Assembly: GCA_027491395.1 (NCBI GenBank) | Contig: JAOZFI010000012.1 | Coordinates: forward strand, 1-16,264 | Length of the DNA: 16,264 nucleotides | Direction: 5' to 3' | DNA from: Thermoproteota archaeon | Lineage (GTDB): Archaea; Korarchaeota; Korarchaeia; Korarchaeales; Korarchaeaceae | Part shown: in pieces, positions 4,038 through 16,264 of the stretch | Position numbering within the stretch: the first letter of the stretch is position 1 | Layout of the letters: each line of letters begins with the position of its first letter | Program-made: the position numbers and the translations under genes | The notes under the pieces: generated by a model | Seen by the model: the letters and a program-made list of their open reading frames with translations, nothing else | What the model was told of the DNA's origin: nothing | Databases searched by the model: none

Positions 4038-4511
4038 ATGTATAAGGCTCCTCCGAAGTTCATCTACGTAAGGTGGATAGGTCTGCTCTGCACCCTAGTA
4101 CCGATGATCGCCTTCCTCGTGGTCACGGTACTTTCGAGCGGGTACCACGGGGTTCCCTTCACCTTGGCCAGCTTCCTGCCCCTGCTAGCCCTCTCGTACT
4201 ACCTAGACAGGATAGTAGGAGCTCTTCCCCTGCCGGAGAGATTAAGGCACCCCTACTTATCGGTTGCACTTGCTTGGCTCTTAGCTTATCCCCTAGCTAG
4301 GCTATTGGTCACAGAGCCCATGCTGATAGCCCTCGGATATCCCACCTTGGCCTTCAACGGAGTGGCAGGCGTCCTGCTGATACTGCTAGGATTGGCCTTC
4401 TTGGGGTTCGCGTACGGGACCTTCTTCTACACTGCCTACATAACGATCTTCAGGATCTACCTAAAGAGGAAGCTGAAAAAGGGAGAGGTACCGAAAGAGC
4501 TCACCGGATGA
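4038..4511 (+). CDS. Hypothetical membrane protein (about 4 TM)
   Basis: SD GAGGAGGT before ATG 4038; four hydrophobic segments and a basic C-tail; 3' end overlaps the convergent ilvD by 11 nt. Confidence 0.7.
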   Translation: MYKAPPKFIYVRWIGLLCTLVPMIAFLVVTVLSSGYHGVPFTLASFLPLLALSYYLDRIVGALPLPERLRHPYLSVALAWLLAYPLARLLVTEPMLIALGYPTLAFNGVAGVLLILLGLAFLGFAYGTFFYTAYITIFRIYLKRKLKKGEVPKELTG

Positions 4512-6156
4512 CGTTCAGATCGGGTCTCATCACAGCCCCAACATCAGCTGAGGCTGCCAGCATGGAGTAGATGGCTAGGAATCCGCTCTCCTTTGGAGGA
4601 GGTGGCGTCCACTTCTTTCTCCTCTCCTCCAGCTCGTCCTCATCCACTAGGAGGTCAAGCCTCCTTTTAGGCACATCTATGAGGATCTCGTCCCCCTCCT
4701 CCACCAAGGCTATTGGCCCGCCCTCGGCAGCCTCGGGAGAAACATGCCCTATAGCTGGACCTCTCGTGGCCCCTGAGAACCTCCCATCCGTGATAAGAGC
4801 TACCCTCTTTAGTCCCATGCCCATTATCGTCGCTGTGGCCGTGAGCATCTCCCTCATGCCCGGACCACCCTTAGGCCCCTCGTACCTGATCACCACAACA
4901 TCGCCCTCAGCTATCCTCCCGTCGAATATGGCCTGAACAGCCTCCTCCTCCGAGTCGAAGGGCTTGGCCCTCCCCTTGAAGACCAGCATCTCAGGATCCA
5001 CGGCTGTCTGCTTTATCACCGCGCCTCTGGGGGCAAGAGATCCCCAGAGAATGGCCAACCCACCCTGTTCATGGTAAGGGTTATTCTTTGGTCTTATGAC
5101 CTCCCTGTTCCTCACCTCAGCTTTGTTCACTATATCAGCCCAGGTCTCGCCGGCCACGGTGAGCTGGTCCAGATGCATCATCTTCGCCAGCTCCTTGAAG
5201 ACCGCCGGCACCCCACCAGCGTAATGTAGGTCCCTGACATAGTGCGGGCCCGCGGGGTTGAGGTTGGCTATGTGAGGGGTCTCCTTGCTTATCTCATCGA
5301 AGAGCTCGAGCGGGAGATCGACCCCGGCCTCCTTGGCTATCGCCATGAGGTGAAGCACCGCGTTGGTGGATCCACCCAAAGCTACGTCGACCCTTATAGC
5401 GTTCTCGAAGGCCTCTCTAGTCATCAGATCCCTGGGTTTTATGCCCCTCCTCAGCAGATCCATCACAGCCCTTCCAGCTGCTCTCCCAGCCCTGATCCTC
5501 TCAGCCGAGACAGCTGGTATAGTGGATGTCCACGGGAGGGCCATTCCCAGCGCCTCGGCTGCTATGGCCATGGTGTTAGCAGTGTAGAGACCCGCGCAAG
5601 ATCCCGGACCCGGGACGGCCATGGACTCGATCCTCCTCAGCTCTCCCTCACCTATCTTTCCGGCCTTGTACTGGCCAACAGCCTCGAACACGTGGCTGAC
5701 TGCCATCTCCTTTCCATCCACCACTCCGGGCAGCATGCACCCTCCATTTACTAGGACAGCCGGGATGTTGAGCCTCGCCGCGGCCATGAGCATTCCCGGA
5801 GTTATCTTGTCGCACGAAGTGACCAGTACTAGGGCGTCGAAAGCGTGAGCCTTCGCCATCAGCTCGACACTACCGGCTATCAACTCGCGGCTGGGGAGAG
5901 GAGCCTTCATGCCCTCGTGCCCCATAGCTATGCCGTCGCATATCGCAATGGTGTTGAATTCCAGAGGAGTACCACCCGCTTCCCTCACGCCTTGCTTTAC
6001 GGCCTCAGCCACTTTATCTAAATGGACATGGCCGGGAACTATCTCATTCCACGAGTTAGCTATACCTATGAGGGGCTTACTTAGGTCCCCGTCATCGAGA
6101 CCTGCTGCCTTAAACAAGGATCTCTGGGGGGCTCTCTCCGGCCCCTCCGTTACCAT
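4501..6156 (-). CDS. ilvD: Dihydroxy-acid dehydratase (IlvD/EDD family); true start may be CTG at 6180
   Basis: Motifs NEIVPGHVHL, ICDGIAMGHEGM, SCDKITPG, GSCAGLYTANTM, GGSTNAVLHL, GPKGGPGMREM and TDGRFSGATRG..IGHVSPEA. Confidence 0.95.
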   Translation of the reverse strand: MVTEGPERAPQRSLFKAAGLDDGDLSKPLIGIANSWNEIVPGHVHLDKVAEAVKQGVREAGGTPLEFNTIAICDGIAMGHEGMKAPLPSRELIAGSVELMAKAHAFDALVLVTSCDKITPGMLMAAARLNIPAVLVNGGCMLPGVVDGKEMAVSHVFEAVGQYKAGKIGEGELRRIESMAVPGPGSCAGLYTANTMAIAAEALGMALPWTSTIPAVSAERIRAGRAAGRAVMDLLRRGIKPRDLMTREAFENAIRVDVALGGSTNAVLHLMAIAKEAGVDLPLELFDEISKETPHIANLNPAGPHYVRDLHYAGGVPAVFKELAKMMHLDQLTVAGETWADIVNKAEVRNREVIRPKNNPYHEQGGLAILWGSLAPRGAVIKQTAVDPEMLVFKGRAKPFDSEEEAVQAIFDGRIAEGDVVVIRYEGPKGGPGMREMLTATATIMGMGLKRVALITDGRFSGATRGPAIGHVSPEAAEGGPIALVEEGDEILIDVPKRRLDLLVDEDELEERRKKWTPPPPKESGFLAIYSMLAASADVGAVMRPDLNVIR

Positions 6157-6485
6157 CCGGCTTCTCCACTTGAGATCCAGGGAAACACCCCCGGAGGAGG
6201 ACTGGAGTTAGATATAGCTTTTTTGTACGGATTGGGGGCTACTTTCAGCGGACTGATCTCCCAAGGATCCAGCAAATATATGATTACCTCGCTGACTAAT
6301 TGGCGCAACCCCCTACCTGACTTTTGTTCGACTTGGAACATAATCAAGAACTATAGCATGAATGCTTCACCCTGTATCTATGAAAAGCGCGGGATTTCTA
6401 TGCTATTTTTAAGTTTCAATGCCGTGAACGAGTAAATTATTTATTTAGCTGATTTCGATAAATTTTTCAGGAGGTGGGAAAGAAA

Positions 6486-7490
6486 GTGAAGTTGAGTAGG
6501 TTCGCCGTCTTTCTAATCGCTGCGCTACTAGTTTCGAGCTACGTTTTGGCGTCGGCCTTCCCCATTAAATCACCCACCGCGACCATACTCCCGCCTCCAA
6601 TACAGCTGCCGACCCCCGTACCGATACCAATAATCGCTGTAACCAAGACGGAGCCTACCGTGACCATACCCAAACCTCCAATCACGATAATACCTATACC
6701 AACAGTTACTATTCAGCCGACCACCGCGACCTTCAGGAAGTTGCATGAGGTGATCATCAAAGTGGATCCTCCCTATGCGGGGGAGGTGAAGCCCCTCAGC
6801 CAAGGAAAGCACCCCATGAAGGAGGGTAAGAGGATAGTCTTGAGGGCCGTTCCCAACGCCGGATATAAGTTCGACCACTGGACGTTAGATGGTCATCGCA
6901 AAGTATATAGAAGGGTACTCAGGTTGCAGGTCCAGAAGGATCACGTTATCGTCGCTCACTTCGTCAAGGCCTCAAGTAGTACTAGGAGCCCCCCTAAAAT
7001 ACCCACGGGATCACCATCTCCTGCAACGAAAAGTGCCCCGGCCGGGTGCATCCTACCCAATGGATTCCCCAAGTCTATGTCATACTCCGGGATGTACGCT
7101 GATCTGCTGTACAACGAGGACCTGCTAGCGGGATTAGGAGAGGGGGTTGCGGGCAAGGTCATAATAGGTAGGGAGGCAGTGAGGCCGCAACCTTGGCACA
7201 GTTACGGTGTGGAGATGGGCGACCTGATCCTGCGGATTAATGGGACAAAGTTCAGTGCGAATTTCGGCTCTGAGGACTACGGCATAATATATCTTAAGTG
7301 CGAGGACGGTTATCTAACCATCAGAGTCGCCGGATTGACTAGGTACGGCACTAGGGCAGCGCTTCTTTACCTCCTCAGCTATCCAGATGTTGTGAACGGC
7401 AAGATACTTATCATCCTAGGGTGGAAGGACTCTAATTCCGACAGGAAAGTTGAATTGGAGGAGGTAATCCCGCTGGTATCGATACCCTGA
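6486..7490 (+). CDS. Secreted/surface protein: signal peptide, Pro/Thr/Ile-rich linker, InlB-B/'bacterial repeat'-like beta domain, archaeal S-layer-like C-terminal domain
   Basis: N-terminus KLSRFAVFLIAALLVSSYVLASA; motif LRAVPNAGYKFDHW...HVIVAHF; C-terminal EDYGIIY...VAGLTRYGTRAALLYL...WKDSNSDRKVELEE. GTG 6486 lies 9 nt after SD GGAGGTG. Confidence 0.65.
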   Translation: MKLSRFAVFLIAALLVSSYVLASAFPIKSPTATILPPPIQLPTPVPIPIIAVTKTEPTVTIPKPPITIIPIPTVTIQPTTATFRKLHEVIIKVDPPYAGEVKPLSQGKHPMKEGKRIVLRAVPNAGYKFDHWTLDGHRKVYRRVLRLQVQKDHVIVAHFVKASSSTRSPPKIPTGSPSPATKSAPAGCILPNGFPKSMSYSGMYADLLYNEDLLAGLGEGVAGKVIIGREAVRPQPWHSYGVEMGDLILRINGTKFSANFGSEDYGIIYLKCEDGYLTIRVAGLTRYGTRAALLYLLSYPDVVNGKILIILGWKDSNSDRKVELEEVIPLVSIP

Positions 7491-7494
7491 TCCC

Positions 7495-8313
7495 TCATAC
7501 CTCCTCCATCATCTTCTCTATCCACGATTTTTCCCTTCCGACCTTCAGACCCCTGAACCTAGCGAGAGCATCGAGTATCTTGGTCTGGCCTAAGAGCAAG
7601 AATAAGGAGACAACTATATAGAGCAGGTTCAAGGGCCATCCCCTCATGAGGGAGAGGTAGGTTTCGTAGATATCTAGGGGCTCCTCTATTAAAGCCATTG
7701 GAACCAGCTCCAGTAGGAACTCGCCCCCTAAGTTAATGAATCCTATGATGGATGTCCCTATTATGAAGCTTAGGACCCTCAGGCTCTTCGTCCTCCTGTA
7801 TATCATTGCAAATAGTACCTCTCCAGCTAGGGCTATGACGAAGAGTATGGAGATTCCAAACGTTACAGACACTCTTATGATGTCAATGGACCTTATATAT
7901 CCCAAGAAGACGGCTCTGAAGAGGTAGTAGGTGTAGAAGAGCACGTAGAAGACGAAGAGAAATACCATCGTCGGAACCAAGTAGAAAACCCTGAACTCCA
8001 TTAGGTATACCGCTAGTGTAGCTACCGCTGCGGATGATAGGAGAAGAAAGCTCAGAGCTAGGAACCAGCTGAATATCTTTACTGTGGTCTCGGCGTAAAC
8101 CAGAAAGACGCTCTTGTTCAACCAGTAGTAAAATACTAAGGAGAACTCTGAGAGGGCAAAGACGAGGAATGTACTCAAAGAGAGAAGTAGCCTTCTTTCT
8201 CTAGTCCTAAGTATTTCCGCGAATATGTATAGAGAGATCGCTATCTCGGAGACCAATCCCACCAAGTGGGCTAGGGGATAGGGGTTCATCAGGATCGACA
8301 TCAGGGGAGCCAA
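7495..8313 (-). CDS. Seven-transmembrane protein of unknown function, last gene of the GTPase-locus left arm
   Basis: Seven hydrophobic segments counted by eye; strong SD GGAGGTGA overlapping the upstream stop, before TTG 8313. Confidence 0.75.
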   Translation of the reverse strand: MAPLMSILMNPYPLAHLVGLVSEIAISLYIFAEILRTRERRLLLSLSTFLVFALSEFSLVFYYWLNKSVFLVYAETTVKIFSWFLALSFLLLSSAAVATLAVYLMEFRVFYLVPTMVFLFVFYVLFYTYYLFRAVFLGYIRSIDIIRVSVTFGISILFVIALAGEVLFAMIYRRTKSLRVLSFIIGTSIIGFINLGGEFLLELVPMALIEEPLDIYETYLSLMRGWPLNLLYIVVSLFLLLGQTKILDALARFRGLKVGREKSWIEKMMEEV

Positions 8314-8324
8314 AACATCACCTC

Positions 8325-8783
8325 CTACATGAAGAAGAGGCCCCTAGATCTCTCAAGGGCCTTATCCACTATTCCCCGGTCGTATCTCCTCTCCTCCCCC
8401 GAGGCCTCGTAGCTTTCAAGCGTCCTGAATATGTCCGGGAGTATGCTCTTCAGGAGTTCCTTCGTCAGGGACTTGTTCTCGCTCAACTGCCTGTAGACCT
8501 GAATCAGCCCACCTTCCAGCCTTGCGACATCCCCCTGATTCTTGGAAACTGCTAGGAGGGATGCTATTCCCGCTCTCGGCCTCTCTCCCTCCAGCCTCAG
8601 GGTTACACCAACGAAGTAGAACCCTCCATGGACAAACTTGACGATCTCCCCTCCTTTAGCTGAGAAGGGAAAGGACCTCAGAGGTACCGTTCCCATCTCA
8701 TCTGAGAAACTCTTTGGGTAGCCAGCAATGATCTCTAGACCTCCCGGCTCGAGCGAGGCAAGCAGCAGATACTCAAGCCCCAT
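8325..8783 (-). CDS. uDENN/longin-like domain protein (152 aa)
   Basis: Pattern LLLASLEPGGLEIIAGYP...VPLRSFP...FYFVGV...ERPRAGIASLLAVS + helix resembles the uDENN longin module. ATG 8783 with GGAGG upstream and a TTTTATTA box at 8818-8811. The CDS is secure; the fold call is tentative. Confidence 0.55.
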   Translation of the reverse strand: MGLEYLLLASLEPGGLEIIAGYPKSFSDEMGTVPLRSFPFSAKGGEIVKFVHGGFYFVGVTLRLEGERPRAGIASLLAVSKNQGDVARLEGGLIQVYRQLSENKSLTKELLKSILPDIFRTLESYEASGEERRYDRGIVDKALERSRGLFFM

Positions 8784-8880
8784 AATCCTCCACTCTAAAC
8801 GTCTCTGAAATAATAAAAGGATACCAGCGTGACAGATCACAGATATTTCAGGAGAGCGAAGGCTTAGAAATACCCGTTGG

Positions 8881-9771
8881 TCACTCGGCGTACCTGGCCA
8901 TCATGTCTATGAGGATGTCCTTCACCCTGCTGTAGTCCTTGGTCTTAGATATGCTATTGATCACATCCATTAAAAGAGCCCTGACCTTGCTCTCCGGGGA
9001 CCTCTTTGGTATCAGGGCAGCTGCAAGCAGTCCTTTCTTGTGGGCTATCACTATCTTCCTGTCCTTCATCTCTATGGACTGGGGGATGTCCCTCAAGGCA
9101 TCCTCTGTGTAGTTCTTAGTGAGGGACAGGAACGCGCTCAGGGTGAGGCTCCTCGACGAGGATGTCGATACCAAAGGATTGCCCTGCTCGTCGAGGATCA
9201 CGAGCTCCTCGATCCTCATTGGATGGATGACCTCTCCACCGGTAAGCTGCTCGTAGAGCCAAGCGAACGCCTCGAATAACCCAAAACCGGTCAGAGCGCT
9301 TGTCCATACCACCTGCCAAGGTATCCCCTCCAGCTTGGTCAGATCGAAGTAATCTATCACCTCCATGACAGTAGCAGCGTCTTCCAGATCCGCCTTGTTG
9401 GCCAGCACTAGGAGGGGGATGTTCCTCTTCATCATCGAGATAACATTCCAGAGCTCCGCCTTGGCCTCATCAAATCTCTCCCTATCGGCTGAGTCGATAA
9501 CGAATATGATGGCGTCGGCCTTCTCAGCGTATTCAGCCCAGATCCTGCGGAGGGACCTCTGCCCTCCCAGATCCCATACATTGAATTCTAGGTTCCTGAC
9601 CCTTAGCTTCTCGTAGTTAGCTCCCACCGTCGGTATCGTTGATCCCGGCTCTCCCTTCCTCAGATAGTTGAGAAGCGTAGTCTTACCAGCTCCATCAAGC
9701 CCTAGGATGACTAGAGTGGCCGACCTCCTGAAGAGGCCCAGAAGATTAGAGATGAGCCTTCCGAAGGGCAT
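8881..9771 (-). CDS. Arf-family small GTPase with N-terminal amphipathic helix, fused to a C-terminal longin-like domain
   Basis: G1 GLDGAGKTT, G2 TIPTVG, G3 WDLGGQRSLRRIW (Arf signature), G4 ANKAD, G5 TSALTG. C-domain IEELVILDEQGNPL...LSAFLS...IQSIEM-like pattern (IPQSIEMKDRKIVI). Start at ATG 9771 or 9789. Confidence 0.9.
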   Translation of the reverse strand: MPFGRLISNLLGLFRRSATLVILGLDGAGKTTLLNYLRKGEPGSTIPTVGANYEKLRVRNLEFNVWDLGGQRSLRRIWAEYAEKADAIIFVIDSADRERFDEAKAELWNVISMMKRNIPLLVLANKADLEDAATVMEVIDYFDLTKLEGIPWQVVWTSALTGFGLFEAFAWLYEQLTGGEVIHPMRIEELVILDEQGNPLVSTSSSRSLTLSAFLSLTKNYTEDALRDIPQSIEMKDRKIVIAHKKGLLAAALIPKRSPESKVRALLMDVINSISKTKDYSRVKDILIDMMARYAE

Positions 9772-9793
9772 CGCAATACTGTGACCCATATCC

Positions 9794-9807
9794 TAAAATA
9801 GCTTTTC
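9794..9807 (-). promoter_or_regulatory. Putative BRE/TATA (GAAAAGCTATTTTA) for the Arf-longin gene
   Basis: Ends 23 nt upstream of ATG 9771, consistent with a leaderless start. The same AAAAGCTAT 9-mer occurs upstream of ilvD (6222-6214, minus strand). Confidence 0.4.
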
Positions 9808-9838
9808 TAGGGTAGGCAGCTCCTCTCGTAAAATATTT

Positions 9839-10228
9839 TTAGTTAACCCTCGACCCGCCACCACCAAGGTATGACCTGAGCTCCGATATCAGGGAATCCA
9901 CCCTCTCCTTCATACTATTGTAATCCCTCACCCCAAGTCCAAGGTAGACATCCTCCCCCACTGTGGCCAGCAGCATGCAACCATTCTCAGATCTCATAAG
10001 GCACATATCGAAGCTTCCCAGGCCAGCGTGTTCTGAGAGGGATCGAGATATCTCGACTATGGCGGCGCTGGAGGCGAGGAAGAAATCCCTGACCATCTCC
10101 TCGGAGAGGGAATCGTAGAGAGATATCCCATCGGGAGTGAACAATCCTATGAAGAGCAAATCTTCCCCCGCATCTTCCGCGAACCTCTCAAGTATGGCTC
10201 TGAATTCCTTGGTCAATTCGGGCATCAT
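9839..10228 (-). CDS. Roadblock/LC7 (MglB/LAMTOR-like) domain protein
   Basis: Helix-beta-beta (FIGLFTPDGISL)-helix (FLASSAAIVEISRSL..GLG)-beta-beta-beta (MCLMRSENGCMLLATVGEDVYLGL)-helix. ATGA overlap with the upstream gene. Confidence 0.85.
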   Translation of the reverse strand: MMPELTKEFRAILERFAEDAGEDLLFIGLFTPDGISLYDSLSEEMVRDFFLASSAAIVEISRSLSEHAGLGSFDMCLMRSENGCMLLATVGEDVYLGLGVRDYNSMKERVDSLISELRSYLGGGGSRVN

Positions 10229-10968
10229 TCACCACCACGCGGGAAGATTACAGAACTACTCCTTAGCTCATCTAGGTACTTGACCACTCCGGGAGCCAGC
10301 TGCCTGTACTTCCCCACTAAGAACCTGAGGTACCCAAGGATCTCCATTAGGTCCTTGATCTTGTTAGTGATCTCCTTCTCCTCGAAATCGCTGTAGACCT
10401 CCCTGAGTACCTCACCTATCTCATCTAGCTTATCGGCTACGGGCTCAACATCCCCGTCGTAGGGAGGGAGCATGTCCCTCATCAGTTCCACCAGCATCTC
10501 TAGATAGTTGCTTGGCATGTAACCGAGCTTGGTTGGTGCCTCGTTTACCCTCGCCGCTAGGAACCTTATCTCAGCTCCTGCATCCGGCATCCTCCTGAGC
10601 ACCTCGCCTAAAACAGATGTAGCCAACTCTATTTCTCGCTCTATCCGGGTGAGTAGGTCGCCTATCCTGTTCCTCATCCTCCTGATATCTTCCTTGAGCC
10701 TTCTCATCTCCTCCCTCCTTGGAGGTTCCTCCTCGGCTCTATCGAGAACCTTGCTCATTCCGTTTATCAGGAGGGACACCTCTCTCTCCAGTTCATTGAG
10801 CTCCCTGTCGAAGCTCCTCCTGAGAAGGGGACTCGAGGCCTTGAGGAGGCTATCAACTCTCCTGAGGTCGTTAACCACGTAATAAACGTCCTCATACAGT
10901 GATAGGATGAGTAGCTTCATTTCCAACCTTTTAGCTTCATCTTCCTCCAAGTATCTTTCCAACATCAT
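10225..10968 (-). CDS. Hypothetical alpha-helical/coiled-coil protein
   Basis: 247-aa E/R/L-rich ORF with heptad-like runs; translationally coupled to the Roadblock gene (SD GGTGGTGA, ATGA overlap). Confidence 0.75.
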   Translation of the reverse strand: MMLERYLEEDEAKRLEMKLLILSLYEDVYYVVNDLRRVDSLLKASSPLLRRSFDRELNELEREVSLLINGMSKVLDRAEEEPPRREEMRRLKEDIRRMRNRIGDLLTRIEREIELATSVLGEVLRRMPDAGAEIRFLAARVNEAPTKLGYMPSNYLEMLVELMRDMLPPYDGDVEPVADKLDEIGEVLREVYSDFEEKEITNKIKDLMEILGYLRFLVGKYRQLAPGVVKYLDELRSSSVIFPRGGE

Positions 10969-10989
10969 GCGTAAAGGATACTAGGATGC

Positions 10990-11000
10990 ATTTATATTTT
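10990..11000. promoter_or_regulatory. Putative bidirectional TATA element ATTTATATTTT in a 59-bp divergent intergenic region
   Basis: Reads TTTATATT on + (about 30 nt before ATG 11028) and TATAAAT on - (22-25 nt before ATG 10968/10965). Confidence 0.55.
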
Positions 11001-11027
11001 GGGTGGATCACGATTCTCTGATATTGA

Positions 11028-12713
11028 ATGGAAGCGAAGACCTTGGAGGAGATACTCGATCACCTGAGGAATTCCGGCCTTCCCCCTGAGAGGATAAACA
11101 AGTTCGCTAATTTGTTGAGGAGGGACGGGGTCTTAGATGTTATAGTGAGGGTCCTCAGTAGGTGCCAGTCCTTGGAGGATGCACTAGAGGAGATCTCCAG
11201 CCTCGGGGGAATGGCCGATATCTCCAAAGAGATCTCCCACAAGGTTAACATAGTCAGGAACTTCGTCCTCACTTCTTTAGTGAATCTTTCCGTTGATAAA
11301 TCCTACATGAGGAGCTTCTTCAGGAAGAAGTCAAGGGCAAAGAAGCTGAAGGAGATCCTCTTATCAACTGAGGAGGAGCTTAAGGAGACGGAGGCCCGTC
11401 TCTTAGATGCTGTGAGGAGCGTACTCCTCAAGACCCTAGAATCTCTTGAGATCAGAGACGAGGGACTCAAGGCGGAGGTAGAGGGAATAAAGAGCCTTCG
11501 TGATCTGGTTACAGCCAAGAAGATATGGAATAAGATAAAGCCCGAGTTGGAAAGGGCTGTGGATGGGACTAAGACCCAAGGTCAGGTGAGAAGGGGCGAG
11601 GAGGCGGTGCTGATAACAGACGATCTGCTTAACGAGATACTCGAAGCCCTAGCGAGGATGGAAGATAATAGGAAGGAGCTAGAGCTGAGAGGGTGCACAT
11701 TCCTCCTCCTCTCCGAGGTGTCATCCCTCAAAGATCAGATCCTAAACTGGCTCTCTTCCAACTTCGGGAAGGAGTCTTACGGAGTGGCTAACATCCTTAA
11801 AATGATAAGGAGGTTATCTGATGACTCGGAAACCCTCCTTTCCACTTCCATCAGGCTGCTGAACCTGAGGTCCGAGCTTGAGGCGGTCAAGAGAGAGGTT
11901 TTGGATAAGATCGGCCGGAAGATGCCCCATCTTACGGAGGCCATATCGATGATAGGGCTGAGCTCACCGAGGCTCCCATGCATCATCTCCATGCCCGAGG
12001 AGATAGCCAGCCTGAGGTACGAGGTTTCAAGGCTTGGGGACACTGTGAGCGCCCTGAAAGAGCTAAGTAGCGAGCTGGATCACTTCAATGAGGAGATCAA
12101 GTTCCAGCCGGAGAAGCTGTCTTACAGGACAGAGCCCGATTTCCTCAAGAGCTTAACAGAGACCCTAAGGGCTTTCAGGCTCTCTAGAGGACTCCCAAGC
12201 ACGGCCTACTCCTTACCAGGTCTAATGGAAGAGCTACTCTCCCTGTACCCTAGATGGAGGGAGTACGTGAAGGAACAACTGGAGGAGAAGGGCCACCTTG
12301 AGGTAGAGGAACTCTCATTCATACCTGATATGTGGAGGGATTGGTTCTTGTCTAACTTGGAGGATGAGGGGCTCATCACAATCTCCGATGGTAAGATACT
12401 CCCAAGAGCTCCTAGCCCCGAGTTGAGAAAGCTCAGAATGAAGTTTGAATTCCTGAAGGACACCTACGAGGACATGAAACCCGTATTCCAGAAGGCAGGG
12501 ATTAGCGAGCAGTATCTTGACTCCCTTGAGAGGAAGCTAGCTCTCCTGATGGATCCCAACTACAGGGATGGGGATAAGGAGAGGCTGCAAAAGGAGGTCG
12601 AGGAAGGTATAGACAGGGCCCTGAGCGTTCTCAAGGGTGGGGTGCCCGATGAGAAAGATGAGACTGGTGGTGATGGGCCCGCACCAAGCTGGCAAGTCCA
12701 CCTTGATACATAG
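11028..12713 (+). CDS. Large alpha-helical/coiled-coil protein with a possible winged-helix subdomain near the C-terminus
   Basis: 561-aa soluble E/L/K/S-rich ORF. Segment WREYVKEQLEEKGHLEVEEL...WFLSNLEDEGLITISDGKI is wH-like. Confidence 0.7.
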   Translation: MEAKTLEEILDHLRNSGLPPERINKFANLLRRDGVLDVIVRVLSRCQSLEDALEEISSLGGMADISKEISHKVNIVRNFVLTSLVNLSVDKSYMRSFFRKKSRAKKLKEILLSTEEELKETEARLLDAVRSVLLKTLESLEIRDEGLKAEVEGIKSLRDLVTAKKIWNKIKPELERAVDGTKTQGQVRRGEEAVLITDDLLNEILEALARMEDNRKELELRGCTFLLLSEVSSLKDQILNWLSSNFGKESYGVANILKMIRRLSDDSETLLSTSIRLLNLRSELEAVKREVLDKIGRKMPHLTEAISMIGLSSPRLPCIISMPEEIASLRYEVSRLGDTVSALKELSSELDHFNEEIKFQPEKLSYRTEPDFLKSLTETLRAFRLSRGLPSTAYSLPGLMEELLSLYPRWREYVKEQLEEKGHLEVEELSFIPDMWRDWFLSNLEDEGLITISDGKILPRAPSPELRKLRMKFEFLKDTYEDMKPVFQKAGISEQYLDSLERKLALLMDPNYRDGDKERLQKEVEEGIDRALSVLKGGVPDEKDETGGDGPAPSWQVHLDT

Positions 12714-13293
12714 GCTCGACCCTTGGGCCGTCAGGATGGACTACTCCAAGGGTACCTTCTCAACCACCGTTGGCTTCGACTACGGCATAGTCCTGTGGGA
12801 CGCTACGGAGAACAGGATATACAGGAAGAATCAGCTCGATCTCGTGGACCCCTCAAATGAGATATGGAAGGTGACCATAACTGGAACTCCGGGACAGGTT
12901 GCCTTCACCCCGGTGAGGAAGGTGTTAGCTAAAGGTAAGGATGGGGTGATCCTCGTGATAGACAGCGCTCGTCCCGTGCAGATGGTCTACGCGCTGAGCC
13001 AGTACCAAGAGGCGAGGGAGGCCGCTGGTCCCGTGCCTCTAATGGTACTCGCGAATAAACAAGACCTTCCACAGGCAAAGAGAGCTGAGACTATAGCTTC
13101 ACTATTGGGCATAAGATGCAGGGTTGTCCCGATATCCGCACTGAAAGGGACCAACGTGGAGGAGGGCTTCCTCCAGTTCCTCAAGGAAGTGAGGAGGGGT
13201 ATCCTCGCCAAGTCCATATCGGAGAGATTGGCCGAAAGAAAGGAGTCAGGGTGGATGTCTTGGGTGAAGAGAAAGCTAGCATCATCCGTTTGA
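12649..13293 (+). CDS. MglA/COG2229-type small GTPase
   Basis: G1 GPHQAGKST, G2 TTVGFDYG, G3 GTPGQ, G4 ANKQD, G5 SALKG. ATG 12649 follows SD GGGGTG; overlaps the upstream ORF by 65 nt. Confidence 0.88.
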   Translation: MRKMRLVVMGPHQAGKSTLIHRLDPWAVRMDYSKGTFSTTVGFDYGIVLWDATENRIYRKNQLDLVDPSNEIWKVTITGTPGQVAFTPVRKVLAKGKDGVILVIDSARPVQMVYALSQYQEAREAAGPVPLMVLANKQDLPQAKRAETIASLLGIRCRVVPISALKGTNVEEGFLQFLKEVRRGILAKSISERLAERKESGWMSWVKRKLASSV

Positions 13294-13817
13294 AGGCCGA
13301 TCTTTCCTTTAGACCCAATCCTAAATGCGCTTTCACTTCCTCGGGTTACCGTGTTGAAGTGCTATCCTTGGGATGCTCCTCCATCTGCGCATCCATAGCA
13401 GTGGTTTCCTCCCTGCCGACCCTTCCTCCCGAGGCCGTATTGAATGTCTGCGGAAAGAATACTTCCATTGAATTGAGTGGAGCGCCGATATCTAGGTCAG
13501 ACCCCATTATCATAGTACACGGCAGATGCGACTTGGAGCTTGGTGGGAGGACGCTTGGGCTTCCCTGCGTGAAGAGGACCCTCCCCGCGTACCTAGCGGT
13601 CGATAACGTAAGGGAGGAAGTGCAGGAGATAGGCCTTAATGTCAGGGGAAAAGTGCTCTACAAAGGTGCTCTCTCGATATACCTCCTCCAAATGCCCACT
13701 GGGGGAGAGTTACTAACAGGAGAGGCGATCAGATTCAACCCGGGCAGCTTCCTACTGATCACCGAAGGAAGAAGGCCTAAGCTCAGAGTAGAAGGGGAGG
13801 AACTGGTCCTCCCTTGA
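13251..13817 (+). CDS. Hypothetical beta-rich, Cys-containing protein
   Basis: GTG 13251 preceded by AGGAG; fills the gap to the convergent gene (2-nt gap between stops); no recognised motif. Confidence 0.55.
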   Translation: MDVLGEEKASIIRLKADLSFRPNPKCAFTSSGYRVEVLSLGCSSICASIAVVSSLPTLPPEAVLNVCGKNTSIELSGAPISRSDPIIIVHGRCDLELGGRTLGLPCVKRTLPAYLAVDNVREEVQEIGLNVRGKVLYKGALSIYLLQMPTGGELLTGEAIRFNPGSFLLITEGRRPKLRVEGEELVLP

Positions 13818-13819
13818 AA

Positions 13820-14332
13820 TCAGGGGACTTCGACACTTTTAGAGACGATTTTCCCGTTCCTGAGGGTGCCCTCCACCACCAACACCTTACCACCGGTGAC
13901 ATATTCGGAAGGAACGAAAAGGGAGAGTTCCAAGCTTTCCTTCGGGTTAAGAGGGGTACCTAGGTGATAACCACCCGTTATGTTCTCTCCTGTAATGAGG
14001 TACACTTCTCCATGTCCGAAACCAATGGTCTCGAACCTAAGCTCTACGATGGGGGCTCCTCCGGCGTTACTTATCCTGAGATCTATGGCATATCCGCCTG
14101 TCGGATCTCTCGGGTAGCCGCTTGAGTAGATCGGATAGGAGCTACTATATACTGAGTCATCCGCCAGAAGGAAGGGCGATTCGGGCAGGTACTCGGATCT
14201 CAGTATCCTCACGTAAATGCCCTCTTCCAGCTCCCTAGCGGAGATAGTGGTCTGGTAAGCTATGAAAAGGCCCACAACTATAGCGGTAGCAAGGACTATC
14301 ACTACCCAGCTCACATTTTCTGGGGTCTCCAT
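13820..14332 (-). CDS. Pilin-like membrane-anchored protein with a beta-sandwich domain
   Basis: SD GGGGTGA before ATG 14332; METPE followed by a hydrophobic helix; IDLRISNAGGAPI motif; directly downstream of the TadC-like gene. Confidence 0.55.
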   Translation of the reverse strand: METPENVSWVVIVLATAIVVGLFIAYQTTISARELEEGIYVRILRSEYLPESPFLLADDSVYSSSYPIYSSGYPRDPTGGYAIDLRISNAGGAPIVELRFETIGFGHGEVYLITGENITGGYHLGTPLNPKESLELSLFVPSEYVTGGKVLVVEGTLRNGKIVSKSVEVP

Positions 14333-14358
14333 TAGAATCACCCCTATTCCTTCACCGA

Positions 14359-15954
14359 TCAACGGTAAAGCGCGAAGAGGGCCGGGGATATCAACGAGTG
14401 GATCGCCACAATCATTATCATCGAGACCACCGCGTAAACTATGCTCTGGATGTTCCCGTGCCTAGTACCGTCAGAGACGCTACTGGTGAATATTCCGAAT
14501 ATGAATATGAACATCACCGCGAATAGGAAGTAGACATCGATTATCCAAGCCTTCGCCTTTAGAAAGGAGAGCAGCATCAACATACCCTGCATTCCAGTGG
14601 CTATTTGTGTTCCAGCGTGTTGAACTTGGGCCATGGATTCGGACACCTTCTCACCTAGGAAGGCCATGAGGTCCACGAAGAGCATGCTGAAAGAGAGGCT
14701 AACTGCCATCAGGAAGCTGTTCATGGAGAGGGTCCCCCTGATTTTCTCGTAGACGGTAGACATCAGGGCTATTATCGTCCTGACGTTGAGGAGCGCTTCA
14801 TATCCGTATATCCCCTTCTGGAGATCGGTTATTAGCTTCTTGTAGATCTTGTAAACGTATATCCTCTCGAAGTCCTTCTTCTCGGGGATCTCCCCAACGT
14901 TAACTAGGTTACCGAGGCTGAATTTGAGGACCTTTGAGAACCTCCCGTAAATGTCGAGGGGCATCGAGGTCACTGCCTCGGTGAATGTCTGCCCTATGCT
15001 TATCCTTCCTCCCAAGTCAGCTAGGAAAACCGGGAGAAATGTGTAGGTGTCCTTCCTCAGCCCTATGTACTCCTTTGTAGCCAGATATCCTGCGATGAAG
15101 AAGACTAAAACCCCTAAGAATAGGGAGTACGTGCCGATGATGAAGTAACCAGCTATAGAAACCAGAGAGGCGAGGATCAGCTGGATAAAGAATAGCTTCC
15201 CGTTGAACATTATCTGCTCGGGATAGTACAGGAACTTGTTCTCCGAGAACAGGAGTATGAGCCCCACACCGAGCCCGAGGGCGAGGTTGATGAATAAGTA
15301 CTCGATGAAGGGCATATTAGCCACTCCACCGAGGAGAACCAGCATTAGGGGAGTCATTATGATGAAGGGCATGAGACCGCTCAAGAAGGAGTTTATGAAC
15401 TGTTCGAATGTCTCAATATTTCTCTGACTGTCTATGATCTCCTGCTGTATTACCATGCTGAAAATCCCCTTGGTATCGATACCCGTGGTCATCCCGTTGT
15501 ATATACTCGTCAGGAAGCTCTTGAAGCTCACTCCAAGCCTCTTCTCCTCTTGTAGAACTCTGTTGATAGCCTCCCTAAGGTCCATGCCCATAAAGTAGAA
15601 GTAACCCATGATCTTCCTGAAAACGTAGCTCCCCTCATATTCCCTCATTCGAGCGAACTGATCGAATATGCCCGTGACATCGAAACCAGCGTTTGCTAGT
15701 ATGAAGCCGTGCAACGCGAAGAGTACAGTCTCCCTGTTCACGAGCCCATAGTCTCTCCCTGTAGTGAAGAGACCGTAAAGGAGCATGACGGCGAAGAGAG
15801 GGATCAGAACGAGCACCACGTAATAGCCCGTCACGTAAGCGAGCACTCCGAGTAGTAGCGAGGAGGCGATTACCTTCTTTATGGCCCCCTCAAGCCTCTC
15901 CTTAGCGTTATATACTCCCCTCTTTTCGAGCTCAAGGGCTATAGCATCTAACAA
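14359..15954 (-). CDS. Type II secretion system F (TadC/ArlJ-like) pilus membrane platform protein
   Basis: Two T2SSF-like cytoplasmic domains (ILANAGFD...MGMDLREAI...FKSFLTSIYNGMTTG; LPVFLADLGGRISIGQTFTEAV...YGRFS) separated by TM clusters. TTG start with SD GGTGA. Confidence 0.8.
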   Translation of the reverse strand: MLDAIALELEKRGVYNAKERLEGAIKKVIASSLLLGVLAYVTGYYVVLVLIPLFAVMLLYGLFTTGRDYGLVNRETVLFALHGFILANAGFDVTGIFDQFARMREYEGSYVFRKIMGYFYFMGMDLREAINRVLQEEKRLGVSFKSFLTSIYNGMTTGIDTKGIFSMVIQQEIIDSQRNIETFEQFINSFLSGLMPFIIMTPLMLVLLGGVANMPFIEYLFINLALGLGVGLILLFSENKFLYYPEQIMFNGKLFFIQLILASLVSIAGYFIIGTYSLFLGVLVFFIAGYLATKEYIGLRKDTYTFLPVFLADLGGRISIGQTFTEAVTSMPLDIYGRFSKVLKFSLGNLVNVGEIPEKKDFERIYVYKIYKKLITDLQKGIYGYEALLNVRTIIALMSTVYEKIRGTLSMNSFLMAVSLSFSMLFVDLMAFLGEKVSESMAQVQHAGTQIATGMQGMLMLLSFLKAKAWIIDVYFLFAVMFIFIFGIFTSSVSDGTRHGNIQSIVYAVVSMIMIVAIHSLISPALFALYR

Positions 15955-16264
15955 CTTCTACATCACCAGATTCCAACCACATTATCACGAGGTAGTAATC
16001 CTCAGATGGGTAGGAGGACACGGAGGGTAGATCGGTTAGGTTGACATCTACCTCAACCAGTTCCTTAGCTGGGAACGACATGACAGTCCCATTTGCCTCT
16101 GAGTACTTGGTTCCATTGTAGTAGATTGTGAGGTTCTCACCGGTCTCACTGTAGAACACGGATATCCTGTCAGTGTAAACCCAGTCCCCGTAGTTGTAGA
16201 AGTGTATTGCGGTGTAGTTGTGGTCAGGGATGAGGTTCCCCCCACTCAAGCGATAGGTAGTATT
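15932..16264 (-). CDS. Surface/pilin-like protein, C-terminal part (5' end outside window)
   Basis: Frame open to the edge (NTTYRLSGG...); IHFYNYGD motif; six N-x-T sequons in 110 aa; overlaps the TadC-like start. Confidence 0.6.
   Translation of the reverse strand, partial: NTTYRLSGGNLIPDHNYTAIHFYNYGDWVYTDRISVFYSETGENLTIYYNGTKYSEANGTVMSFPAKELVEVDVNLTDLPSVSSYPSEDYYLVIMWLESGDVEVVRCYSP

Follow-up and report, generated by a model that had tools for sequence, protein, structure and literature searches.

A conserved Korarchaeum gene cluster joins an Asgard-type Arf-longin GTPase trio and an MglA-type GTPase module

A divergent cluster of eight genes was analyzed in a 16,264-bp stretch of DNA from a hot-spring archaeon (hereafter the window, which is the whole of host contig C42). 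The cluster joins two modules. One is a trio encoding an Arf-type GTPase fused to a longin-like domain (ArfLon), a stand-alone longin protein (p171) and a polytopic membrane protein (TM7); the other, hereafter module 2, encodes an MglA-type GTPase (GTP2), a Roadblock-like protein (Robl) and three further proteins, cc247, h561 and p233. Because gene linkage to ArfLon recurs in Korarchaeum and in Asgard archaea, p171 becomes a candidate regulator of ArfLon, either a GTPase-activating protein (GAP) or a guanine nucleotide exchange factor (GEF). The reading we prefer, which falls just short of an even chance, is that of a composite system: an Asgard-type Arf cassette would have been acquired as a unit, with p171 acting through its residue R70 as a GAP at TM7, beside an older MglA/MglB-like module. 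An earlier note, made from the sequence alone, had described the cluster as one self-contained locus. Its list of parts stands, and its single invention gives way to two modules of different age. The features, by position in the window (aa, amino acids; ORF, open reading frame), are as follows.

7495-8313, minus strand: TM7, polytopic membrane protein of 272 aa
8325-8783, minus strand: p171, longin protein of 152 aa (original ORF to 8840)
8881-9771, minus strand: ArfLon, Arf-longin fusion of 296 aa (original ORF to 9789)
about 8887-9207, within ArfLon: C-terminal domain
about 9241-9726, within ArfLon: G domain
about 9724-9768, within ArfLon: N-terminal amphipathic helix
9839-10228, minus strand: Robl, Roadblock/LC7-like (MglB/LAMTOR-like) protein of 129 aa
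10225-10968, minus strand: cc247, 247 aa, first gene of the minus-strand arm
10969-11027, no strand: divergent intergenic region of 59 bp, with a TATA-like TTTATATT at 10991-10998
11028-12713, plus strand: h561, 561 aa, no family
12649-13293, plus strand: GTP2, MglA-type GTPase of about 211-214 aa (original ORF from 12637)
13251-13817, plus strand: p233, about 188 aa, no recognizable family (original ORF from 13116)

Results

Conservation of the cluster in Korarchaeum

The eight proteins were searched by tblastn, and the korarchaeal loci with enough flanking sequence (L023-L028 and L030-L032, hereafter the main loci) keep all eight genes together in 9/9 cases; the conserved synteny that the earlier note had suggested looking for is thus present. 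Across these loci ArfLon identity ranges from 98% down to 64%, and that of cc247 and h561 falls to 25-30%. Eight genes retained in nine of nine loci are not chance ORFs. In the five more distant of these loci p233 is encoded on the opposite strand, with Robl and cc247 on either side, and remains within the cluster. At E<=1e-100, ArfLon was found in 14/20 genomes of the same genus and gave no strong match in 20 genomes outside it (0/20; best E = 5.6e-9). p171 and TM7 adjoin ArfLon in 12 of the 13 korarchaeal ArfLon loci, and three loci (L017, L033 and L034) hold a paralogous ArfLon-p171-TM7 trio and no other gene of the cluster.

ArfLon, an Arf-type GTPase with a predicted longin-like domain

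Residues 17-181 of ArfLon match the Pfam Arf model with 180.6 bits (cut-off 22.3; E = 2.4e-53), and the G domain shares 45-49% identity with eukaryotic Arl1. The motifs GLDGAGKT, WDLGGQ (with the catalytic glutamine kept), NKADL and SAL are all present, and G24-T31, D67, G69, G70 and Q71 are invariant among 16 sequences. The AF2 model, with a predicted local distance difference test score (pLDDT) of 84.9, matches Arf6 at Z 27 in the VIA structure comparison. The N-terminus is amphipathic, with a hydrophobic moment (muH) of 0.72 that 0.9% of 2000 shuffles reached, and a helix is modeled at residues 4-13 at low pLDDT.

When the whole ArfLon model was used for the fold search, the matches covered the G domain only (residues 12-180). 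Residues 189-295 are modeled in the order bb-a-bbb-a-a, which is that of longin domains, and sub-threshold matches to Fuz_longin_1 or Robl_LC7 were found in 4/9 ArfLon C-terminal domains. By hhalign, the C-terminal domain aligns with the N-domain of a 250-aa protein encoded in Asgard ArfLon operons (84% probability, E = 7e-6), which in turn shows weak matches to three longin Pfam families at about 1e-3; direct hhalign comparisons of the C-terminal domain with p171 or Robl were not significant. Judged from these matches and the modeled topology, the C-terminal domain is probably longin/roadblock-like, in keeping with the Arf-longin fusion that the earlier note had proposed.

In a tree of 65 G domains with GTP2 as outgroup, the 15 korarchaeal sequences form one clade (support 100/95). 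This clade lies within an archaeal clade (96/84), the sister group of the eukaryotic Arfs, in which Asgard sequences of the long and the short form also fall. The two korarchaeal ArfLon paralog sets both belong to the korarchaeal clade, which is in line with a single acquisition and a later duplication of the trio.

p171, a candidate regulator with a predicted longin fold

The AF2 model of p171 (pLDDT 78) has the topology bb-a-bbb-a-a. Foldseek returned nine matches at E<=1e-3, of which the ninth is titled as a longin domain and the others are GATOR1/SEA-complex chains; the Loki Roadblock-Longin structure 8yqg is among the top matches. When the model was compared by VIA over 48,161 chains, the best match was 8fw5_B of GATOR1 (Z 12.0, 131 residues aligned), then 8yqg_B (11.0), 8adl_S of the SEA complex (10.6), FLCN (6nzd_H, 10.3), VAMP7 and C9orf72-SMCR8 (7o2w_A, 9.4). 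The GEF longins in the same search were DENND1A (Z 9.1), MON1A-CCZ1 (8.2) and Mon1-Ccz1 (7.5), and the range from Z 12.0 to 8.0 covers 22 entries, mostly with longin-containing titles. The GATOR1/SEA-complex chains are presumably NPRL2/NPRL3 and Npr2/Npr3, and 8fw5_B is the chain that we take to be NPRL2. On its model, p171 is thus predicted to be a longin domain whose closest folds are the GAP longins NPRL2 and FLCN. The profile of p171 against PDB retrieved just design proteins and transposases at E>0.01 and did not reach NPRL2, FLCN or SMCR8. The three parts that define a DENN protein (uDENN, core DENN and dDENN) were not found together in p171, which consists of a single longin module and a tail within 152 aa. 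The label "uDENN-like" given by the earlier note therefore holds for the longin fold and fails for the DENN core.

R70 and P23 are the sole invariant columns in 16 korarchaeal and Asgard p171 sequences. R70 is located in the b4-b5 loop, and the position is arginine in 105/120 family representatives covering that loop. The p171 profile matches p171 alone in its own genome. Of 1.84 billion cluster representatives, the p171-family profile (korarchaeal and Asgard) matches 131, almost all of them 150-180 aa long. Among 10 of these clusters that were looked up, four had names: Hodarchaeota, Lokiarchaeota/Promethearchaeota, Thorarchaeota and Korarchaeum cryptofilum. The K. cryptofilum p171 is ACB07655.1, the number directly after ACB07654.1, which is Kcr_0908, the published ArfR. 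Compared by hhalign, p171 and the Asgard p171-like proteins align over 125 columns (96.2% probability, E = 2e-9), and on this profile evidence they are homologous.

Two minor observations concern the same family. A C-terminal [KR]-G-x-F-F segment (about 8325-8350 in the window) is common to korarchaeal and Asgard members and may be a second docking motif. The p171 orthologs of K. cryptofilum type (P0126 and P0252-P0265) carry the JGI/IMG label "maltooligosyltrehalose synthase"; a longin-fold protein of 151 aa is excluded from being this enzyme, so the label is probably an annotation error spread across records.

Asgard counterparts of the trio

The Asgard protein P0018 has the full two-domain architecture of ArfLon and is matched at E<=1e-25 in 113/400 Asgard genomes; among the matches listed, many are frames of ~300 aa over both domains, and shorter ones over the G domain only are also present. 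Twenty Asgard loci from this search were scanned with hidden Markov models (HMMs) built from the korarchaeal genes. In 16 of the 20, ArfLon has as neighbors a p171-like gene (160-170 aa) and polytopic membrane proteins of ~215 aa, either one or two of them (here called TMa and TMb). The genes usually run in the order 250-aa longin-like protein, ~424-aa Pyr_redox_2-like protein, p171-like protein, TMa, TMb and ArfLon; L170 shows the korarchaeal order of ArfLon, p171 and membrane protein. Two further loci, L160 and L162, are cut off by the contig edge beyond the membrane proteins. A profile search with the ArfLon alignment led to Asgard loci whose ArfRs are of the usual short type (ArfNT no higher than 78 bits) and in which no partner genes were found.

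The 250-aa and ~424-aa operon proteins occur in L154, L156-L158, L164 and L166-L169 and have no korarchaeal counterpart; hhalign comparisons of cc247, h561 and p233 with them were not significant. The match of the ~424-aa protein to Pyr_redox_2 (FAD/NAD oxidoreductase) is weak (E = 6.7e-7 in L154). In L153 (G169, contig C214, 4354-4865), which of the Asgard loci is nearest to the korarchaeal ArfLon, a frameshift near the arginine loop splits the p171-like gene into two ORFs that match HMM positions 8-73 and 72-148; this may reflect an assembly error or a pseudogene.

TM7 and its conserved C-terminal tail

TM7 shows seven hydropathy peaks, roughly the seven-transmembrane protein that the earlier note had described. 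No Pfam family and no transporter family matched TM7, and Pfam gave none for the Asgard membrane proteins; the idea that TM7 or its Asgard counterparts might be Yip1-like found no support. The C-terminal tail of TM7, predicted to be cytosolic, carries the conserved motif E-x-[ST]WIE[KR]MMEE, in which E261, W264 and I265 are invariant among 10 orthologs. A tail of the form [ST]WI[AES][KR] is found in 11/11 korarchaeal TM7 proteins, in 17/17 Asgard TMb proteins and in the membrane protein of L153, and its occurrence within the last 20 residues is limited to 1/3807 ORFs of at least 100 aa in the own genome, namely TM7 itself. The ESM Atlas clusters nearest TM7 are Promethearchaeota hypothetical proteins (score 0.93-0.94). 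TM7 is nevertheless only weakly similar to the Asgard membrane proteins, and their homology is not established.

Module 2 is probably older in Korarchaeia

GTP2 has the P-loop GPHQAGKST, the G3 motif TGTPGQ (lacking the Asp), NKQDL and SAL, and TGTPGQ is invariant in nine orthologs. The G3 motif of MglA-type GTPases is TxPGQ without the conserved Asp, and the MglA-type GTPase that the earlier note placed on the other arm is recognized in GTP2. The GTP2 profile matched in PDB the HodArfR1 structure 8oul (1.5e-12), an Arf-like GTPase (1.1e-10) and MglA 3t12 (2.7e-10). At E<=1e-8 GTP2 occurs in 21/41 genomes including its own (20/40 relatives), among them two sister genera where ArfLon was not found. 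The Pfam Arf model matches just the two GTPases of the locus in the own genome; it misses a third small GTPase, a GTP2 paralog of 66% identity (C56:11421-12005, minus strand), whose neighbors are unrelated to cc247, h561 or Robl.

Robl matches Pfam Robl_LC7 at E = 0.002 (18.2 bits, below the cut-off of 23), as the sole such match in the own genome, and the profile of eight Robl orthologs finds in PDB the Prometheoarchaeum Roadblock3 structure 9jue (E = 2.6e-4) and 7f8m (0.012). Taken together, the sub-cut-off match and the Roadblock3 match favor the Roadblock protein named in the earlier note. Robl is three genes from GTP2 in the window, directly 3' of GTP2 in a sister genus (L175), and two genes 5' in L177. 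The Robl ortholog of L027 (G001, contig C22, 8949-9350) has one internal stop codon and was excluded from the Robl alignment.

cc247 has weak matches to coiled-coil families (SpiroCoCo 1.4e-4, ASRP 4.2e-4) and is probably a coiled-coil protein. No Pfam or NCBIfam family was found for h561, whose 14 homologs at E<=1e-5 belong to Candidatus Korarchaeota (one) and close relatives (13), and no Pfam or ESM Atlas match for p233. By these searches h561 and cc247 would be restricted to Korarchaeota. h561 always lies upstream of GTP2, and cc247 adjoins h561 also in G004, G015 and G020, where ArfLon was not found. In L032 (G008, contig C110, 4645-7247) a second divergent cc247/h561 pair, of 26-29% identity, lies between ArfLon and p171.

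Five korarchaeal genomes carry module 2 genes with no strong ArfLon match. In G004, GTP2 is followed by divergent cc247/h561; in G015, p233 precedes divergent cc247/h561 and a GTP2 match stands at the contig's end; G020 has h561, cc247 and GTP2 together; in G021, Robl and GTP2 are separated by one intervening gene; and in G022, h561 is divergent from GTP2-Robl. Because korarchaeal genomes with no strong ArfLon match also carry module 2, it is probably the older of the two. In the 20 Asgard loci, Robl, cc247, h561, GTP2 and p233 were not found at E<0.05, save one Roadblock-like ORF in L165, and thus the MglA-type/Roadblock module looks native to Korarchaeia. From the gene order, the trio looks inserted between Robl and the neighboring ilvD gene.

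By analogy, GTP2 and Robl suggest a GTPase-GAP pair like MglA/MglB, to which they are alike in the G3 T-x-P-G-Q without Asp and in a Roadblock gene within four genes of the GTPase. Unlike MglA, GTP2 has a profile slightly closer to Arf-type structures, and h561, cc247 and p233 are without bacterial counterparts. A "Group 4 MglA", which may be an ortholog of GTP2, is reported for the one korarchaeal genome in the part of PMC4316618 that bears on it.

Discussion

A composite of two GTPase modules

Gene content, folds, synteny, distribution and residue conservation are as described above, and from them we infer every interaction, GAP activity and cross-talk of the following scheme. ArfLon would bind the membrane through its N-terminal amphipathic helix in the GTP state and cycle on and off. 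Its C-terminal longin-like domain would pair with p171, and the conserved tail at the C-terminus of TM7 would keep the two at the membrane. R70 of p171 would then enter the Arf active site as an arginine finger and speed GTP hydrolysis, as the SMCR8 longin does on Arf1. NPRL2 and FLCN are thought to act like SMCR8, and the known finger arginines of longins include NPRL2 Arg78 and FLCN Arg164. Insertion of the trio into the cc247-Robl transcription unit would finally have put both switches under one divergent promoter region. If the composite reading is right, transfer into Korarchaeum would suggest the movement of a functional module rather than of one gene.

Several observations weigh against this scheme. 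Most longin/roadblock platforms act as GEFs. The GP motif of the GAP longins is not clearly present in p171: judged from our own alignment and model, the loop ahead of strand 2 contains G without P in korarchaeal p171 and NP in most Asgard relatives. The match of R70 to NPRL2 Arg78 or SMCR8 Arg147 is at best putative, as the fold comparisons report aligned ranges and no single residues. The fold search covered the C-terminal domain of ArfLon only as part of the whole model. A complex prediction of ArfLon, p171, GTP and Mg scored 0.55, versus 0.51 for the control, and is used neither way. With respect to linkage, G003 holds ArfLon (L029) without p171 or TM7, and its p171-TM7 pair is on another contig (L035), where it adjoins a short Arf-like ORF; 2/20 Asgard loci (L152 and L171) lack the trio partners; and GTPase genes of MK-D1 are generally outside operons with longin or Roadblock (RB) genes, according to the portion of PMC10933270 that deals with them. 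With respect to TM7, hhalign comparison with Asgard TMb gives 36-57% over the tail only, and a word-indexed profile search with TM7 yielded 16 proteins, all from Korarchaeota.

A wider and more tentative proposal, which we consider possible and clearly below even chances, is that the trio represents a conserved archaeal Arf cycle with its regulator and membrane receptor, a counterpart and possible forerunner of the eukaryotic longin GAP complexes (C9orf72-SMCR8, GATOR1 and FLCN-FNIP), which would have spread to Korarchaeum and been wired there into an MglA/Roadblock polarity-type switch. If it were true, it would answer which GTPases the GAP-like longins of Asgard archaea serve, and proteins for reconstitution could be taken from a hot-spring archaeon with a small genome.

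p171 and the ArfLon C-terminal domain may instead form a dimer that promotes nucleotide exchange or tethers ArfLon at TM7, with the arginine playing a structural or interface role. Mon1-Ccz1, TRAPP, DENN and Ragulator are precedents for such GEF or anchoring platforms. The presence of DENND1A, MON1A-CCZ1 and Mon1-Ccz1 among the fold matches of p171, the unclear GP motif, and the weak matches of the ArfLon C-terminal domain to Fuz_longin_1, the family of MON1, FUZ and HPS1, are all consistent with this. We nevertheless consider it somewhat unlikely, since GAP longins outrank GEF longins in the same fold search (Z 12.0, 10.3 and 9.4 versus at most 9.1) and the most conserved residue of the family is a single arginine in the b4-b5 loop, which suits a finger.

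Less probable again is that chance insertion placed an Asgard trio next to the MglA/Roadblock module and that the two GTPases have no cross-talk. The modules do occur apart, the trio alone in L017, L033 and L034 and module 2 alone in G004, G015, G020, G021 and G022, and the module 2 genes are missing from the Asgard loci apart from the ORF in L165. Yet adjacency is retained in 9/9 main loci with ArfLon identity down to 64%, and on the minus strand Robl is flanked by cc247 and ArfLon, which makes co-transcription likely.

A Rag-like sensing system, with an ArfLon dimer in the manner of RagA/C or Gtr1/2, Robl as a Ragulator-like part, TM7 as an SLC38A9-like sensor, p171 as a GATOR1/FLCN-like GAP and ilvD as a hint of amino-acid sensing, is improbable. 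It draws on the Rag-like plan of a G domain with a C-terminal roadblock/longin domain in ~300 aa, on the best p171 match being in a GATOR1 entry (8fw5_B, of the GAP complex for Rag GTPases; presumably NPRL2) and on ilvD following TM7 in 9/9 main loci, but the G domain of ArfLon is Arf-type and not Rag-type (Pfam Arf E = 2.4e-53 versus Gtr1_RagA 3.5e-7) and falls in the ArfR clade, the N-terminus is amphipathic as in Arf, Robl is part of the older module and does not accompany the trios that stand alone, and TM7 has no transporter family match. Only the two-domain architecture of ArfLon is Rag-like, and in the pertinent passages of Tran et al. (PMC10933270) such Asgard proteins are termed Rag-like.

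Relation to known systems

A korarchaeal ArfR has already been published, so the GTPase itself is not new. The ArfR preprint by Vargova et al. (bioRxiv 10.1101/2024.02.28.582541) reports in its main text "a single ArfR gene" in a shallow korarchaeal branch, Kcr_0908, and infers its transfer from Asgard archaea. ArfLon agrees with ArfR as described there in family, Arf-type G domain, amphipathic N-terminus and membership of the archaeal ArfR clade, and its placement in our G-domain tree agrees with that main text. It differs from the same account in its C-terminal longin-like domain, in the small longin and membrane protein encoded beside it, and in the occurrence of this arrangement in Korarchaeum and Asgard archaea alike. 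The main text of the preprint makes no mention of neighbors, operon or synteny; its supplementary tables, outside this check, may list more. A full-text search with six flanking locus tags returned only the preprint's mention of Kcr_0908, and a literature search, supplements not covered, found no description of the operon, of the linkage across Asgard archaea or of the candidate regulator. No earlier account appears to exist of the conserved cassette, its presence across Asgard archaea, the candidate arginine or the membrane-tail motif.

In its description of the C9orf72-SMCR8-Arf1 complex, PMC8213707 has two longin domains cupping Arf1, with SMCR8 Arg147 as the finger. p171 resembles C9orf72-SMCR8, GATOR1 (NPRL2-NPRL3) and FLCN-FNIP2 in being an arginine-bearing longin linked to an Arf/Rag-type GTPase and in having its best fold matches there. 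Unlike C9orf72-SMCR8, it is 152 aa long with no DENN part, and by analogy the second longin would be supplied in cis by the GTPase; unlike the GAP longins in general, it does not clearly keep the GP motif and has no sequence-level link to them. Asgard "FLCN/SMCR8-type" longins with a GP motif and an arginine finger are described in the relevant section of PMC12290439, which asks whether ArfR or Rag proteins are their partners. By that description p171 is similar, being a small archaeal protein of GAP-longin-like structure with a conserved arginine; it differs from the longins of that section in that a partner is nominated by conserved gene linkage.

The passages of Tran et al. (PMC10933270) on fusions report Asgard GTPase-longin and GTPase-RB proteins. 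ArfLon is like the Rag-like fusions treated there, a small GTPase with a longin/roadblock domain in ~300 aa, and is unlike what they state for MK-D1 in general, as it is clustered with a longin gene in 16/20 Asgard loci.

The linkage across Asgard archaea and Korarchaeum points to one longin, one arginine and particular membrane proteins as testable candidates. Eukaryotic Arf GTPases initiate membrane budding, and their archaeal relatives have only recently been described; we know of no regulator of an archaeal Arf protein.

Host, locus layout, promoter region and neighboring genes

The own genome is 1.72 Mb and 98% complete, and the nearest ArfLon homologs carry the names Candidatus Korarchaeota or Korarchaeum. 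The host is a member of the Korarchaeota, outside the Asgard group, which sets aside the Asgard host that the earlier note had considered.

All eight ORFs that the earlier note had listed between 7495 and 13817 are present at their coordinates, as are its 59-bp divergent gap (10969-11027) and the tight packing, Shine-Dalgarno sites and overlaps. Robl and cc247 overlap by 4 nt, TM7 and p171 are 11 nt apart, Robl and ArfLon are separated by 67 nt, and GGAGG-type sites lie upstream of TM7, p171 and p233. Four starts were re-set from ortholog alignments: p171 to M20 (12 orthologs), ArfLon to M7, GTP2 to about 12649-12658, and p233 to about 13251, a GTG preceded by AAAGGAG. The p233 orthologs (177-207 aa) align only from residues 54-77 of the long ORF onward.

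Within the divergent gap the TTTATATT box ends 30 nt ahead of the h561 ATG and starts 22 nt past the cc247 ATG. The gap is likely a bidirectional archaeal promoter, and its two transcripts would be leaderless or have short leaders. cc247, Robl and ArfLon follow one another on one strand, the first two overlapping by 4 nt and the last two 67 nt apart, and co-transcription is therefore likely. The shared divergent promoter region, together with the position of Robl upstream of ArfLon, suggests co-regulation.

On the TM7 side, ilvD (dihydroxy-acid dehydratase) lies 3' of TM7 on the same strand in 9/9 main loci, ~70 nt away in the distant ones. In the window, 4501-6156 and 6474-7490 hold ilvD and, between ilvD and TM7 on the opposite strand, a 338-aa protein. 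The 338-aa protein is rich in Pro and Thr, has a Flg_new_2 (InlB B-repeat) domain and is an insertion in the window and its close relatives.

On the other side, 13820-16264 encodes a 180-aa protein with an N-terminal hydrophobic segment (d180) and a 531-aa polytopic protein (d531), with no Pfam family. In G002 (L178, C9:54500-73500) the d180/d531 homologs are followed by a T2SSE-type ATPase (E = 6e-21) and then by large Laminin_G_3 and CarboxypepD_reg proteins, and a second MglA-type GTPase ends the cluster, which resembles a type-IV-pilus-like cluster between two MglA-type GTPases. A type-IV-pilus link for module 2 was considered and rejected, as d531/d180 adjoin it only in the closer relatives G002, G010, G012 and G020 and not in L023-L027 or G022.

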